64,000 nt of DNA from a virus. The notes below the pieces were generated by a model. The model saw only the letters and a list, made by a program, of their open reading frames with translations, ran no database searches and had not been told where the DNA came from. Of the stretch, positions 3,707-30,313 are shown one piece after another. Position numbers and translations under genes: made by a program. Within the stretch, counting starts at the first letter, position 1. Every line of letters begins with the position of its first letter. The DNA lies in IMG/VR virus record IMGVR_UViG_3300031758_000022, positions 39,023 through 103,022 of that record; one strand, written 5' to 3'.

Positions 3707-4683
3707 GTTTTTAATGCTTGATTGATAAGTGGTGTTAATGTTTGTTTGACTTTTAGTTGGCCGTGCTTTTTAATAGAATCAGATATATCTTTTTCTAATG
3801 GTAGTACAACATAAGGAAGTTTAAAAGCTTCTTTATATCTTTCCATTGCAGTCATACCGGCTACATCATTGTCAAAAATACATACAATCTTTTTGTAATT
3901 AGCTTTTAGGTTCCTTACTATTTCTTCTCTAAGCATGCTACCTTCAGAATCAGGAGCTATAAATTCTATAGGATATCCTAATTTTACTAGAGACATGCCA
4001 TCCTTTAAAGAAGATACTATAACTAACAAAGGTTTTTTAAACTCAAGCTGTTCCATTCCCTGGACATAATCTTTAAGCTTCATAAACTTTTTATCTTTGT
4101 TATAAGGCTGATAAATCTTGTACAGAGTACCATCCTCACGGAAGAAACCATATACATAAGGCTTTTCACTTGTAAAGAAGCTATACACACCATTCTCTAC
4201 TTTGCTAAAAGTAAAAGAACATAAAGGTTCTATGTTATACTTTCCAAGAATATCAGAGTCTATACCGTAGCTTGTCCAATAGTCTGCATCATTCTTATTC
4301 CATTTCCTAGTATTATAAGTTTCAAGCTTATAATTAACTTTTGGAACAATCACTTTTGTTTTTGCAGATTCACCGGTGCGCTTTAAGTAATTAGTGTAAT
4401 CACTAACTATTTTGTTTACAGCATCTCCTAAACTCAGATTAAACATTTCCATGACTAAAGTAATGCCTGTACCACCTTTATCTGTTGAAAAGTCCTTGAA
4501 GTAATAATCTCCATTTTCTCTACAAAAAATAACCATTGATGGAACAGAATCTCTAGCATTAAAAATAGACTTGATTTTTACATCTTGTCCTACTAGTGTT
4601 TCTGGTAATGAACAATACTGCTCAAATATCCAGTTACTTGGTACATCATATGTACTGCTTACTATAATTTTAGTACTAATCAT
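3703..4683 (-). CDS. DNA primase (Toprim domain)
   Basis: FKDFS N-terminal region, SSLKD, Toprim FDND.AG, KDISD. Confidence 0.8.
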   Translation of the reverse strand: MISTKIIVSSTYDVPSNWIFEQYCSLPETLVGQDVKIKSIFNARDSVPSMVIFCRENGDYYFKDFSTDKGGTGITLVMEMFNLSLGDAVNKIVSDYTNYLKRTGESAKTKVIVPKVNYKLETYNTRKWNKNDADYWTSYGIDSDILGKYNIEPLCSFTFSKVENGVYSFFTSEKPYVYGFFREDGTLYKIYQPYNKDKKFMKLKDYVQGMEQLEFKKPLLVIVSSLKDGMSLVKLGYPIEFIAPDSEGSMLREEIVRNLKANYKKIVCIFDNDVAGMTAMERYKEAFKLPYVVLPLEKDISDSIKKHGQLKVKQTLTPLINQALKT

Positions 4684-4693
4684 GGTAGAAAAT

Positions 4694-4723
4694 AAAAAAA
4701 AGGGGCCGTGATGACCCCTTTTT
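4694..4723 (-). terminator. Intrinsic terminator (possibly bidirectional)
   Basis: A-run, GGGG...CCCC stem, T-run. Confidence 0.6.
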
Positions 4724-4735
4724 AATTGATAACCC

Positions 4736-5458
4736 TTAATCCAAATCTAAATTAAAGTCAGAAGCAATAATAGTTGTTGTTGGAACATCAACCATCATAC
4801 CCGCTGTTGGCTCACTTGTACCAAATGATGCAACAGTTGCGCCTCCATCAGTTTTAGCTTTTTTAATATGTTCTTCTTCATTGAAGATCATAACTTTACC
4901 ATCATTATCAGCACTTTTATAAGAAAAAGCACCTTTTACAGCTTTAGGCAAATACAGATCAAAGTTGATATAACCAGCTTTGTTCAAATATTCACGGCCT
5001 GCCACACACATGCTAAGCATTTTACCTTTGAAAGGTTTGTCACTATTGAACTGCTCTACTAGAGATTCAATAGTATCATGCTGATTATCTTGAGACTCAA
5101 GCCAAGCTGCAGAATTTGTTTCTACACAAAGGTTTCTTAGAGCTTTCAAAACTTCCATATCACGAGAAATAACAATACCACTCTTAGTAGTGCCATCAGC
5201 AAAAGGCCATTCAGTTAATCTAACTTTGCCTATTTGACCTGCATATCTTCCCAAATCCGGTTGGTCCTTATCAATATAAAAACCTTCAAATTCAGGGCCC
5301 ATATCAGGACCTTCTACTTGAAGCGCCATATGATAAGCACCTTCTTTATAAGGAACTTTTTCAAGTGTTACACTGTTGATTGAGCATTGAATATTACCAG
5401 GTTGTAATACTTTTGGAGTTGCTGAACCGCCTCCAGGAATTTTAGTTGTACTAATCAT
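4736..5458 (-). CDS. Putative ssDNA-binding / replication protein
   Basis: Lies between the Sak4-like ATPase and primase; acidic tail DFNLDLD; function inferred. Confidence 0.45.
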   Translation of the reverse strand: MISTTKIPGGGSATPKVLQPGNIQCSINSVTLEKVPYKEGAYHMALQVEGPDMGPEFEGFYIDKDQPDLGRYAGQIGKVRLTEWPFADGTTKSGIVISRDMEVLKALRNLCVETNSAAWLESQDNQHDTIESLVEQFNSDKPFKGKMLSMCVAGREYLNKAGYINFDLYLPKAVKGAFSYKSADNDGKVMIFNEEEHIKKAKTDGGATVASFGTSEPTAGMMVDVPTTTIIASDFNLDLD

Positions 5459-6764: not shown

Positions 6765-7757
6765 TTATATTGTACCAACTCTTTTCACAGCTTGTGGTGG
6801 AGTAGGCATTTCTGTTATTTGCATTCTTTCAAACTGAGCTTTAAAGAAGCTCATCCTTGTGTCACCATTTCTGCATTTTAGAAAGTGCATTACAAGAGTT
6901 TTATCATCTTCAATGATATATTTGTCTGGACCATAGAGCCTTATTTTTTGTTTGCCAGGTCTATTAAGTCCTATTAGTGTATCTGCATGCTGTAGCAATG
7001 CATCACCACCAAAGATATCTGACTCAAGTATGTAATTGCCGTATTTTCCATCTTCACTTCTTTCAGGAGAATCAACATTACGGTTCAATTGACTCAGAAC
7101 AATAAATGCTATAGGATACTTTCTCTTTAGTTCAGTTAGAGCTTCACCAAGATTATACAAAGTATCAAATTTTTCTTTTTCAAAAGATGATTTTTTGAGC
7201 AACAGACTGTGATCCAGAGTGACTATAGTATTAGTATACTGTACTCTACCATCTTCATCTCTTGTAGCATGAGTATTCATGTACATTTGAATCTGTTCTT
7301 TTAGCTCATTAACCGTGATAGGTGTTTCAACCACATCAATAGGCTCATCTTTTCTTTTTTTAGCATGAGCAAGACATTTTCTCAAATCTTCTTTGCTCAA
7401 AACACCATCAGCACTACATAGATATTTATAGGTCCTCCCTAAAATACTTGAATATTCCCTGATAGCAGTAGTTCTTGCTAGCATCTCGAATTGGAATTCT
7501 AATACTCTAAATGTTTCTCCAGGATTTAATGTGGAAGCTTCTCTGATTATTTGATCTTTAACCAAAGTCTTTCCAGCACCGGGTCTACCACCTATTACAG
7601 TAAGTGAATGCCATTCTATTCCGTCTGTAGTTGCATCATTAAATTTATCCCAAGGAGTTTTTATACTCTTTATACGACCTTCCATTCTCCCCTGCATGTA
7701 TTCTAAGGACTGCTGAAATCCTTCTTTGTGACTTTTCCATAAGGCAGGTGTTTCCAT
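6765..7757 (-). CDS. dnaB: DnaB-like replicative helicase
   Basis: GGRPGAGKT, FEM, LSQLNR, KCRNG. Confidence 0.85.
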   Translation of the reverse strand: METPALWKSHKEGFQQSLEYMQGRMEGRIKSIKTPWDKFNDATTDGIEWHSLTVIGGRPGAGKTLVKDQIIREASTLNPGETFRVLEFQFEMLARTTAIREYSSILGRTYKYLCSADGVLSKEDLRKCLAHAKKRKDEPIDVVETPITVNELKEQIQMYMNTHATRDEDGRVQYTNTIVTLDHSLLLKKSSFEKEKFDTLYNLGEALTELKRKYPIAFIVLSQLNRNVDSPERSEDGKYGNYILESDIFGGDALLQHADTLIGLNRPGKQKIRLYGPDKYIIEDDKTLVMHFLKCRNGDTRMSFFKAQFERMQITEMPTPPQAVKRVGTI

Positions 7758-12030: not shown

Positions 12031-13381
12031 ATTGAAATTCGGATTTTACAACATTGTTAATAAGCATACTAATAGCCTCAGGAGCTTTAGACATTTCTGT
12101 AACAACAGTATTGTATTTGTACAACTCTTGAACTCCAGTATAGTTAAAACCTATACCGCAAGCTACAAAACCGTCCCTTTTGCATTTTTCAACAATTCTC
12201 TTTAAATCATCACGGTCTGAAGAGCTTCCATATCTGTAACCTGCAGGTTGACCATCAGAAATTACAATGAAAAGAATGTTCTTATCAGTATAAGATCTAA
12301 TTTTGTCATAGATATTGTCAATAACAGGACCATCATAATTCTCTAAAAAGTTTACTCTATTTTGACGAGCATAAGCTTTTTCAAAAATCTGGTTGTACTT
12401 GTCATTATATACATGAATTTCAGGAACATTACCACCTGTATGACCATATATATAAATGTCTTTAGGATCCATTACTTGAGAGAATGTCAAATAAAGCATT
12501 TTTGTAATACTGTGTTGGCTATCTCTATAACCAGAATAGTCCATACTACCACTCTCATCATTTAGAATGCAAACACTAAAAGGCTTAGTTCTATCATGAA
12601 GCTCTTTTCTAAAATTGATAAGATGATTTCCTGCTATTGCCTCAGCAATTTTAGGAATATCTATTTTACCAGTTCTTAGATTAGTAATTTTAGTCTCATC
12701 CTGATCAAAAGAAATATCAAGAAGATTTAACAGTTTTTCAGAGTTTTTTACTTCATTGGAATTATAATGATGTTCACTCTCCTGCTCAGACATAACCTTA
12801 AATGTAGTATTCTTTTTAAGATCTTCATAACAGCTAGAACTAGATTTATAGTCACCCCATATATTAGAACGAGTTTGCTTCTCAACAGAATTTATTTCAC
12901 TTCTTAAAAAATCCTTAGTTGATTTACCTATAGACAAATAGTCTTCAGTATCCTCATCTTTTAAGGAAAATTTATAAGTAATTGTTGAATTACTTATCAA
13001 ATTACTATAATTAGTAAATAATGAAGAAAGCTCCTTTTCATTCTTTATGATACCTCTTAAACAAGCTTTTACAGATTCTTTATTAAAAGTGTAAACAATA
13101 CTTGATCTATATACACCATATCCATAGAAATTGTCTACTTTTTCTGCTTTACAAGATTCTAAAAATGTATCTTGATAACCGTATTTGTTAACAGCATTGA
13201 TAAAAACAGCTAGTAGCTTCTTTTCAGAATAAGGACTAATATATTGAGATTTATCTCCCGCTGTAATGTTAAAACCATAAGGCATTTTCATTTCAGGAAG
13301 ATCCCATAAAAGCTGGGAAAACCCTCCAAAATCGGAGGATTCCCAGCCACTTTTACTAAAAAACTTTTTTACTTTACCCAT
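12029..13381 (-). CDS. VWA domain protein (CobT/NorD-like)
   Basis: RTGKIDI, MIDAS DESGSM, N.DG, VISDGQP. Confidence 0.8.
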   Translation of the reverse strand: MGKVKKFFSKSGWESSDFGGFSQLLWDLPEMKMPYGFNITAGDKSQYISPYSEKKLLAVFINAVNKYGYQDTFLESCKAEKVDNFYGYGVYRSSIVYTFNKESVKACLRGIIKNEKELSSLFTNYSNLISNSTITYKFSLKDEDTEDYLSIGKSTKDFLRSEINSVEKQTRSNIWGDYKSSSSCYEDLKKNTTFKVMSEQESEHHYNSNEVKNSEKLLNLLDISFDQDETKITNLRTGKIDIPKIAEAIAGNHLINFRKELHDRTKPFSVCILNDESGSMDYSGYRDSQHSITKMLYLTFSQVMDPKDIYIYGHTGGNVPEIHVYNDKYNQIFEKAYARQNRVNFLENYDGPVIDNIYDKIRSYTDKNILFIVISDGQPAGYRYGSSSDRDDLKRIVEKCKRDGFVACGIGFNYTGVQELYKYNTVVTEMSKAPEAISMLINNVVKSEFQ

Positions 13382-26949: not shown

Positions 26950-27021
26950 CCCCTTTAGCAGGATTCGAACCTACACACTCTGTTTAAAAACAGTGCTCTA
27001 ACCAGTTGGAGCTATAAAGGG
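26950..27021 (-). tRNA. tRNA-like gene with a 3-nt-short anticodon arm (Lys-like, undetermined)
   Basis: Acceptor CCCTTTA/TAAAGGG; D-arm GCTC-CAACTGGTTA-GAGC; T-arm GTAGG-TTCGAAT-CCTGC; anticodon arm only 14 nt, CTGTT-TTTA-AACAG. Confidence 0.75.
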
Positions 27022-27506: not shown

Positions 27507-27890
27507 TTATTTAAAGTATTGGCTGTATACTAAATTAGTATTTTCTTCAGCCCATGTAACTATTTCTTCTTCCTTGTTGGTCACATCCCAATCATAGATG
27601 AGCAAGGACATATGAGCCATTTCGTGATTAATCAGGGTAATATCTCTATAGTCACCTTTAAGAGCAGACTTATTGATAAATATAAAAGGCAGCGGTGTTT
27701 TAGAAAGGGTACTATCTCTAGGATCATAGTTGCAAAAGCCATCTATGTATGTACCACCTTCAGCAATGCGGCAGATACACTTGTCTTTACTGACACCGTG
27801 CATCTCCTGGACATTGTAATAATCAAACAAATCTACAGCATTGTTACCAATGAGTAGTACAAACTGAGCATAATAGATAATCTGCATCAT
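27507..27890 (-). CDS. HExxH zinc-metallopeptidase-like protein
   Basis: FIFIN...LINHEMAH...EEE. Confidence 0.6.
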   Translation of the reverse strand: MMQIIYYAQFVLLIGNNAVDLFDYYNVQEMHGVSKDKCICRIAEGGTYIDGFCNYDPRDSTLSKTPLPFIFINKSALKGDYRDITLINHEMAHMSLLIYDWDVTNKEEEIVTWAEENTNLVYSQYFK

Positions 27891-27913
27891 GTAAGTTTTA
27901 AGTTAATTACGGT

Positions 27914-28053
27914 TTATCCCTCTGCACTCAGTTGTAATAGCATTCAAACTGTATTTCTACAGAACTCAAGCGTATATCAGGATTAGAGTTTTTATTTCTT
28001 CCTATCTATTACAACTGCTATCCCTTGGGAAGATAGTTATGGTGCATTAATAA
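27914..28053 (-). ncRNA. Twister self-cleaving ribozyme (P1 type, enlarged P5)
   Basis: TTAT-TAA-TGCA-CC-ATAA-CTATC-TTCCCAAGG-GATAG-[12-bp P5 plus insert]-AG-TGCA-GA-GGG-ATAA: P1, UAA, P2, P4 and both pseudoknots present. Confidence 0.8.
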
Positions 28054-28197
28054 TGAGGGTTATCTGAACACCCACAAACGCCAGCATCTTACTGGATAGT
28101 TATTTACAATATTTAATGTGCAGTGTAATAACAAAAGGCACAAGTATTCTCTATACTCACAGATATCCCGCCTGTGTATATTATTAACCCCCTACTA

Positions 28198-28310
28198 TAT
28201 AAGAGAGAGAGAGAGGATAAGAATAATACAAAGAGAGGATAAGAAGAAACGTAGTAGCTATGTAGTTAAAAGAGAGGAATAGAGAAAAAAGTAAGTTGAG
28301 GTAGAGTATA
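28198..28310. repeat. Purine-rich tract with AGAGAGGATAAGAA direct repeats
   Basis: Repeat copies at 28210 and 28232, (GA)n run, extreme strand skew. Confidence 0.5.
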
Positions 28311-28386: not shown

Positions 28387-28917
28387 TTAGTCTCCAAGTG
28401 TCTCATTTTCTTCCTCTTCCTCTGTGAAGACCTCACTACCGCCAACTTCATCCTCACTGCTTGCCAGAATGAGTCTACCTCCTTGATTTTCAAGGGATTG
28501 CATCTGCATTTGTATAGCACTTGCCAATGCAGGATACTTAATTGCTTGTGCTTTAAGCTCAAGCAGTTCAGTGTTATCAGCTGCGAAGCCAATTCTACCG
28601 TCTTCCTTCACATAGTAAGAGAGTTGTTTCTCTTTACCCATATGTGTGGAAGTGTGATAGAGTGGCACTTCCTTACCTGCAATAAGCTGTGGCTTACCTT
28701 CAGGTGTGGTTAGTACTTTGTAGTAGTCAGTGCCATCTTGGCGCTTAAACTGCTTGTACATAGCGAGTTCCTTAGGACTGGCATCCATAATGCCATAGCG
28801 CCACATAGTCACTACTTCAGTAAGTGGCTTGTTAGTCACTTCATTGAGAACAGGTAAACCGTTTACATCCTTGATGATGCGGGCTTTCTCGTAGCCATTG
28901 ATTAGTTTTAACTTCAT
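28387..28917 (-). CDS. Early protein (paralog of 29305-29706)
   Basis: KLK...RY....S.KELA.Y motif, acidic tail. Confidence 0.7.
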   Translation of the reverse strand: MKLKLINGYEKARIIKDVNGLPVLNEVTNKPLTEVVTMWRYGIMDASPKELAMYKQFKRQDGTDYYKVLTTPEGKPQLIAGKEVPLYHTSTHMGKEKQLSYYVKEDGRIGFAADNTELLELKAQAIKYPALASAIQMQMQSLENQGGRLILASSEDEVGGSEVFTEEEEENETLGD

Positions 28918-30010: not shown

Positions 30011-30313
30011 TTAAAGGCTTGGCTCTTCAGAGTCAGCATCTGCCAACGCATAGCAATTCCTCGCAAGGTTTGCTGCCTCCATAAGTTGAATCTGTAAGAA
30101 CTCACGGTTAATAATTGATTTGAACTCTTTAAGAGATTCATCCCCATACTCCCCATTGGAAATAGCATCAAAGGCTGTAGATAATTCACGAGCCTTCTGT
30201 CTGATACCAATGAGTTGAGGTGTGTAACTCAATAAGAGTTCATTTAATAATTCAGCATCTATTGATGTTGATGTGCGTCCCGCGCAGGACAAGATTACTT
30301 TTCCTTTTTTCAT
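30011..30313 (-). CDS. Early hypothetical protein
   Basis: 100 aa; ATG 27 nt downstream of a motif copy. Confidence 0.65.
   Translation of the reverse strand: MKKGKVILSCAGRTSTSIDAELLNELLLSYTPQLIGIRQKARELSTAFDAISNGEYGDESLKEFKSIINREFLQIQLMEAANLARNCYALADADSEEPSL

Follow-up and report, generated by a model that had tools for sequence, protein, structure and literature searches.

A predicted type-P1 twister ribozyme from an uncultured phage represents an almost exclusively phage-borne subfamily with a rewired pseudoknot and a hypervariable P5 domain

Twister is one of the few natural classes of self-cleaving ribozymes. Its type-P1 form, exemplified by Osa-1-4 of Oryza sativa (PDB 4OJI; PMC6154101), is represented in Rfam by RF03160, a member of clan CL00120. 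About 1% of twisters are reported to have an additional P5 helix (PMC6154101). Hammerhead and twister ribozymes that lie between genes have been proposed to process polycistronic mRNA, with cleavage giving the products different stabilities, and the role of twister in cells and phages is still open (PMC6765202).

Here we describe an element in a 64-kb stretch of DNA (the window) that forms part of a 103-kb IMG/VR virus record of a crAss-like phage, whose major capsid gene is of the crAss type (PF23898, E = 1e-31). Below approximately position 30300 of the window, genes run along the minus strand, and on this strand the 140 bases from 28053 to 27914 contain a complete and ordered set of twister elements. 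The locus has the architecture, the helix covariation and the conserved catalytic bases of this class. Judged by sequence comparison, we consider it, with a probability of about 75%, to be a self-cleaving ribozyme of the type-P1 twister class with a predicted cleavage site, belonging to a distinct and almost exclusively phage-borne subfamily.

Read 5′ to 3′ on the minus strand, the elements follow one another as UUAU, U^AA, UGCAC, C-AUAA, CUAUC, UUCCCAAGG, GAUAG, an 89-nt P5 domain, A, GUGCA, GAGGG and AUAA. The outermost strands, UUAU (28053-28050) and AUAA (27917-27914), form P1, which in this copy consists of four A-U pairs. The adjoining U^AA (28049-28047) occupies the position of the UAA in the Rfam twister-P1 consensus line; it comprises U-1 (28049) and AA (28048-28047), and the bond predicted to be cut joins U28049 to A28048. 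P2 is a 5-bp helix of UGCAC (28046-28042) with GUGCA (27927-27923), in which a core of UGCA (28046-28043) with UGCA (27926-27923) is extended by a fifth pair, C28042:G27927. The 5′ side of L2, C-AUAA (28041-28037), begins with C28041, the proposed T2 partner of G28024. The P4 hairpin (28036-28018) follows, its arms CUAUC (28036-28032) and GAUAG (28022-28018) enclosing L4, UUCCCAAGG (28031-28023), whose CCC (28029-28027) enters T1 and whose G28024 enters T2. On the 3′ side, the linker A27928 and the P2 3′ strand (together 27928-27923) lead into GAGGG (27922-27918), where G27922 corresponds to the catalytic guanine, an assignment that follows the review PMC6154101, and where GGG (27920-27918) is the T1 partner of the CCC in L4.

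The P5 domain (28017-27929) is based, in MFE folds, on a perfect 12-bp helix, CAGUUGUAAUAG/CUAUUACAACUG (28017-28006 with 27940-27929). Its 65-nt interior holds two sub-hairpins in the MFE fold, one of which, CUGUA-GAAA-UACAG (27962-27949), is capped by a GAAA tetraloop. Unconstrained MFE folding of the whole element recovers P1, P2, P4 and the 12-bp P5 base (-32.4 kcal/mol, z = -2.6). The phage genome has a single copy of the ribozyme, scoring 101 bits with the family model R1. The predicted cut lies 158 nt 5′ of the ATG at 27890, and the 3′ end of the ribozyme lies 23 nt before the same ATG.

The element is invisible to the Rfam catalogue. Cmscan with Rfam 15 gave no twister match, either for the window at the gathering thresholds or for positions 27700-28300 (601 nt) at E ≤ 10, a range in which no ribozyme family at all appeared; the sole match in the whole-window scan at gathering was a tRNA-like RNA at 26950-27021. 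RF03160 was not detected anywhere in the whole 103-kb record, its gathering threshold of 67.2 bits not being reached by the window's element. A cmsearch with Rfam twister-P1, suggested as a check on the original prediction, was run and returned no match, and natural relatives with a short P5 were missed as well: Rfam scans of nine related loci left the P5-variant twister unscored at E ≤ 10, even where P5 measured only 16-44 nt. P5 length is therefore not the sole cause, and we attribute the failure to differences in the core (the rewired T2 and the single-A linker) together with P5. A blastn search with a 3-kb query around the ribozyme found no match among GenBank phages.

For comparison with described twisters, the canonical consensus was taken from the Rfam alignment line and from reviews, and the family model R1 was built from alignment A2 (86 copies). 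R1 aligned end to end with a canonical twister at L078:2777-2843 (Rfam 52.1 bits), with a weak score of 18.2 bits (E = 0.02). This sequence, at L078:2781-2839(-), is a conventional type-P1 twister with T1 = CAC/GUG; its Rfam score (E = 4e-9) falls below the gathering threshold. The same phage contig also carries a P5-variant copy, so that two kinds of twister occur in one phage. Near the conventional twister, at 2026-2116, lies a tRNA whose anticodon region carries a 26-nt insert.

Three scans of IMG/VR with exact patterns, combined with parsing of the fetched loci, yielded at least 125 distinct complete copies of the variant; per-copy statistics refer to 124 copies among the matches listed. 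Two loci reached through the downstream protein, L001 and L003, have this element with other helices, P4 being CUCAC/GUGAG and P1 also differing, and L001 has an extra hairpin at the canonical site of the optional P3. Because a 5′-half pattern leaves the downstream 3′ half free and a 3′-half pattern leaves the upstream sequence free, recovery of the missing half in such searches is not circular. The 5′-half pattern gave at least 122 unique matches, with a complementary P4 strand (4 bp or more) at the exact register in 104 of 122; when the register was slid, no more than two of the same 122 matches had at least 4 bp in any register. The 3′ motif TGCAGAGGG lay within 340 nt downstream in 102 of the 122 matches, as against 0.9% of background windows, and GAGGG was found in 102 of the 105 complete elements from the search with the 5′ half only. 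In the reverse direction, UAAUGCACC was present at the right distance upstream in 60 of the 63 3′-half matches with the usual L4, and UAA in 60 of the 63 copies anchored by the 3′ half alone. Changes of the catalytic G are rare (3 in approximately 105 copies).

A scan of 596 Gb of prokaryote genomes served as a chance control for the 5′-half pattern. It gave 106 matches, only 8 of them complete elements, and the family is therefore essentially phage-borne. The eight complete prokaryote copies reside in MAGs of Sediminibacterium, Bacteroidia, Phycisphaerales and Allosphingosinicella.

Alignment A2 provides the covariation evidence. The parser accepted only copies with the 4-bp P2 and three or more pairs of P4, and the search patterns themselves prescribed the bases of L4 and GAGGG. 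In A2, 93.1% of cells are paired, compared with 30-45% when partners are slid, and both-sided changes occur in 22 of 28 pairs. The covariation score is 0.378 versus 0.144 after shuffling, and none of 500 shuffles reached the observed value on any measure. Covariation extends over P1, P2, P4 and the P5 base. P4 exists in 24 versions across the family, with double changes at all five pairs, and P2 appears as UGCAC/GUGCA, UGCAU/AUGCA, UGUAC/GUACA and UGUGU/ACACA. P1 is genuine, though weak. Its positions are 70% paired, each with several types of pair, and the mean is 2.6 contiguous pairs versus 1.19 ± 0.10 with shuffled partners; it is absent or reduced to 1 bp in 44 of 105 copies. This weakness is no obstacle to the twister assignment, since P1 is reportedly dispensable for twister cleavage (PMC6154101). 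G-U pairs, such as the 26 U-G pairs at the innermost P1 position, fit an RNA on the ribozyme strand only. Sequence, MFE fold and family-wide covariation together uphold the twister identity, the helices, the predicted cut position and the P5 anatomy of the original prediction.

The two pseudoknots fared differently. T1 is invariant in A2, where the search patterns had fixed its bases. Extra copies in the fetched loci, unselected by patterns fixing the T1 bases, include three (L131, L190 and L267) in which the middle pair has undergone a compensatory change from CCC/GGG to CAC/GUG, with L4 reading UUCACAAGG and the 3′ strand GAGUG; between these three copies, P4 and the fifth P2 pair vary. The predicted CCC/GGG pseudoknot is thereby supported. 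T2, in contrast, had been proposed as a CC/GG pair of dinucleotides in compensatory exchange for the usual GC/GC, and here position 28042 covaries with G27927 instead. The two positions are C:G in 70, U:A in 13 and U:G in 3 copies of A2, so that 28042 tracks the base before the P2 3′ strand (27927) and forms a fifth P2 pair. C28041-G28024 may then be the only clear T2 pair left. This pair is invariant in A2, where the search patterns had prescribed the final G of L4; the C at 28041 is invariant in all 86 copies, and the remainder of L2 is AUU, AUAA or ACAA across the family. A U-G or C-G pairing of 28042 with the last G of L4 may also form, the observed variation not requiring it.

P5 combines a conserved frame with highly variable contents. 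Across the family, its base, CAGUUGUAAU.../...AUUACAACUG, is conserved in sequence and also covaries, and the interiors range from 16 to 314 nt (median P5 length 85 nt). The 124 interiors fall into 102 unrelated BLAST clusters, the window's interior being a singleton, and sister phages share a near-identical core and upstream element with unalignable P5 interiors. As a group, the interiors fold better than shuffled sequences (mean z = -1.1, n = 110); the window's interior has z = -0.63. These patterns suggest a tolerated insertion slot whose interior must fold. A conserved base coupled with a hypervariable interior makes a conserved sensor unlikely, and in this respect the regulatory role that had been suggested for P5 is not borne out.

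Some interior types do recur in otherwise different ribozymes: one set comprises L029, L133, L191, L220 and L268, another L001, L003, L149 and L265, and another L155, L179 and L233. One example is a common GUAUGUGAUUAU..GGAACGUAUGCCAUACACACGGA block, a recurrence that suggests exchange of interiors as modules.

The family also includes unusual arrangements. In L161 and L222 (TGCAAAGGG) and in L188 (TGCAGAAGGG), the catalytic G is changed to A or GAGGG is disturbed, making them candidate inactive members. Tandem copies occur in L155 (9204 and 9430), L176 (4770 and 4934), L203, L206, L133, L286 and L280, some of them back to back (...GAGGGA followed directly by UAAUGCACC...); double cleavage of such tandems would free a unit-length ribozyme RNA with 5′-OH and cyclic phosphate ends. 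In L176, a GOLLD-like RNA at 4367-4761(+) (RF02032, 100.8 bits, below the gathering threshold of 150; E = 1.6e-25) stops 9 nt 5′ of a twister-variant copy that runs from 4771 onward, and the ribozyme would trim the 3′ end of this RNA.

A giant form, which we term class 2, is found at L254:~6945-7171(+) and L292:2648-2835(+), as well as in L159, L238, L241, L243, L245, L248, L249, L252, L253, L256, L259, L261, L273, L280, L283, L286, L290 and L294. In this form the P4 5′ strand is separated from L4, which reads CUCCCAAGG, by an additional domain of 65-150 nt. The domain contains conserved GUGGAUAUAAAGACUUCUUA ... UAAGAUGUGAAACCAC, then an 8-bp stem, CUGAUUAA/UUAAUCAG, plus two more variable inserts, bringing the variable slots to three in all when P5 is counted. 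A third group (L240:11806-11937 and 12497-12647, L246, L247, L255 and L280; R1 scores of 27-43 bits) still has the P5 module, as well as a 3′ strand that reads GUGCAGAGGG or GAGAG, and its P4 loop is devoid of CCCAAG. On the 5′ side, CCCUU or CUCUC is followed by AA and UGCAC; this strand simply pairs with the 3′ one, and by sequence the group looks like a twister relative without pseudoknots.

The flanks of the ribozyme have a consistent organization. Directly upstream lies a conserved two-hairpin element (28096-28054), composed of CCAG-UAAGAUG-CUGG and of a GGGU/ACCC hairpin with loop GUUCAGAUA. This element and the twister are invariant together in five related phage loci whose flanks are unalignable, and its stems show compensatory changes in L249, as judged by eye. 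The 45 nt upstream in the window (28097-28053, overlapping the two-hairpin element) fold at -12.0 kcal/mol. Family-wide, structure is evident in the 45 nt upstream (mean MFE -8.6, z = -1.85) and weak in the 45 nt downstream (mean MFE -4.8, z = -0.47). Downstream in the window, an A/U-rich leader of 23 nt (27913-27891) has UUAACUUAAAACUUAC directly before the ATG. An AACTTA/TTAAC motif occurs within 30 nt downstream in 40 of 124 copies, compared with 4.7% of background windows, and leaders of the AACUUA type often continue straight into AAACUUAUG. The local coding strand carries 101 of the 124 copies.

The neighbouring downstream gene, which lies outside the ribozyme, is a minus-strand ORF of 127 aa with an HEMAH motif (27890-27507). 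It matches no Pfam family and has a hit to PHROG 36425 (unknown function; E = 1.5e-4). A link between the ribozyme and this HExxH gene, implied by the original prediction, proved incidental: a twister lies within 1.2 kb upstream in just 6 of 19 homologues, all of them in fetched loci, and the ORF is common in the phage group of the window.

Approximately 260 nt upstream of the cut, a minus-strand hairpin with a 15-bp stem and a U run (28346-28310; -22.2 kcal/mol, z = -4.6) resembles a terminator and would bound the transcripts able to reach the ribozyme. This hairpin follows an ORF (28387-28917), as does a strong 11-bp minus-strand stem at 28404-28376 with the stop codon in its loop; a pyrimidine-rich UCCUCUCU repeat region occupies ~28200-28300. 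A promoter scan of the minus strand found no recognisable sigma-70-like promoter between the hairpin and the ribozyme. Farther upstream, the 11-mer ATAACCTATTA has six exact minus-strand copies between 28997 and 30558 and occurs nowhere else in the 64 kb; this array may mark early promoters. A promoter-like motif, TAAGCATG..AAACTGC, was rejected as a general feature, being upstream of just 5 of 124 copies and absent from the window. The related arrangement TAAGCATG-N5-AAACTGCTTAT lies upstream of copies in L212, L270, L077, L179, L144, L253 and L283, in some cases abutting UAA, and could be a phage promoter.

A tRNA-like RNA on the same strand (27021-26949; Rfam tRNA 47.8 bits) lies 896 nt downstream of the ribozyme. 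Its acceptor, D and T arms are normal, and its anticodon arm, CUGUU-UUUA-AACAG, has a 4-nt loop for which ARAGORN gives a 2-base "anticodon". A terminator scan flagged nothing between the ribozyme and the tRNA-like RNA, and the two may possibly share a transcript with a 5′-OH leader. An association with tRNA genes was rejected as a family feature, ARAGORN finding a same-strand tRNA within 150 nt downstream in none of 124 copies. By the Rfam tRNA model, L004 has a tRNA with an insert a few nucleotides after its copy, and in L273 a tRNA-like start follows 8 nt after the copy.

The observations can be set against three other explanations. A conserved structured RNA might adopt the twister fold without cleaving and act as a folded 5′-UTR, a stability element or a protein-binding element. 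The absence of any Rfam model that scores the element, the rewired T2 with loss of the canonical GC/GC pairing and UAAA linker, and the weak P1 would all accord with such an RNA. The sequence-conserved P5 base helix could mark a protein site, and L240, L246, L247, L255 and L280 keep P5 and the 3′ strand but have a plain helix where the catalytic loop would be. A non-cleaving RNA would nevertheless have to account for UAA, L4 CCCAAG and GAGGG being almost invariant in more than 100 diverged copies, for T1 being maintained through compensatory change and for the rarity of catalytic-G changes, and we regard it as improbable. Chance resemblance, or an element acting at the DNA level such as a repeat, an att site or an origin, has in its favour the AT-rich window, the trivial P1 and the want of a match to any database RNA model. 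It is refuted by the half-pattern tests, in which either half recovers the other at about 100 times the background rate, and by the A2 covariation; compensatory changes and strand-specific G-U pairs speak for RNA, and a single genomic copy is not a repeat. We assign this explanation a negligible probability.

The remaining alternative accepts the ribozyme and makes it allosteric, with P5 sensing a ligand, a protein or an RNA and thereby switching cleavage. P5 meets the core at the P2/P4 junction with only 0-1 linker bases, so that its folding could affect the core, and its interiors out-fold shuffled sequence. However, the wide length range and the many unrelated clusters of these interiors, together with their failure to align between near-identical ribozymes of sister phages, are hard to reconcile with a sensor; the Rfam scans of the window and of related loci gave no aptamer match, and the interior in the window folds weakly. 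An allosteric switch thus appears very unlikely, more so than the non-cleaving RNA.

Under the preferred reading as a type-P1 twister-class self-cleaving ribozyme, minus-strand transcription would allow P1, P2 and P4 to fold. L4 would then dock through T1 (CCC 28029-28027 with GGG 27920-27918) and at least one T2 pair (C28041-G28024), bringing G27922 and A28048 to the U28049-A28048 linkage, and this bond would be broken by internal transesterification. The upstream product would end in a 2′,3′-cyclic phosphate just after the conserved two-hairpin element, and the downstream product would begin with a 5′-OH and the folded ribozyme, followed by the unstructured A/U-rich leader and the 127-aa ORF. 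P5 would serve as an insertion slot, its base helix conserved and its interior needing only to fold. We infer both cleavage itself and its purpose, namely the uncoupling of upstream and downstream RNAs with a protected end for each. The layout of upstream hairpins, cut, ribozyme and open leader fits the processing role proposed for intergenic ribozymes (PMC6765202).

A more speculative extension, which we consider unlikely, is that the twister core forms the fixed cutter and scaffold of a modular RNA-processing cassette whose slots carry lineage-specific functional RNAs. The slots may be P5 in all copies and, in class 2, also the 65-150-nt domain before L4; decoys, guides or protein-binding domains may be their cargo, each released with a defined 5′-OH end; and other copies may trim the 3′ ends of large non-coding RNAs, such as the GOLLD-like RNA of L176. 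If this were true, the hypervariable P5 interior in the window would be functional cargo and not filler.

On its own, the window's element is one further member of the phage subfamily. The subfamily as a whole, with at least 125 distinct copies in uncultured phages that Rfam does not see, implies that catalogue-based surveys undercount phage ribozymes. It further indicates that a rewired T2 and very large inserts are compatible with the twister fold, which is useful for ribozyme engineering and for better models, and its common layout offers a concrete hypothesis on the role of intergenic phage ribozymes.

Compared with the intergenic hammerhead and twister ribozymes of phages and bacteria (PMC6765202), the subfamily shares the intergenic position, the coding strand, the vicinity of phage genes and a proposed part in transcript processing; it adds a consistent layout, function being a proposal in both cases. 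Twister-sister (RF02681) resembles it in the wording of the P4-loop sequence and in phage association, but lacks the double pseudoknot, whereas T1 is present and covaries here, and Rfam gives no match to that family. Type-P5 twisters (RF02684) have the same catalytic core and use a P5 helix; there the two ends of the RNA lie in P5 and P1 is closed, whereas here P5 is closed and the ends lie in P1, again with no Rfam match.

The closest relative is the type-P1 twister. Both share the order P1 - UAA - P2 - (P3) - P4 - (P5) - P2′ - GAGGG - P1′, the L4 core UCCCAAG, T1 as CCC/GGG, a catalytic G directly 3′ of P2 and an N^A cleavage site, with optional P3 and P5 at the canonical places and a P1 that may be weak in either. 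The phage subfamily differs in that T2 is not GC/GC, position 13 being a C or U that forms the fifth P2 pair, in that L4 ends in GG and has an extra 5′ U, and in having a single A as the 3′ linker in place of UAAA. Every copy has a P5, with a sequence-conserved base and an interior of 16-314 nt, and the members, to which the Rfam model is blind, reside almost only in phage contigs. On these comparisons the element, very probably a functional twister-class ribozyme, extends a known class rather than founding a new one, and adds to type-P1 twister an uncatalogued phage subfamily in which T2 is rewired and a hypervariable P5 is obligatory.
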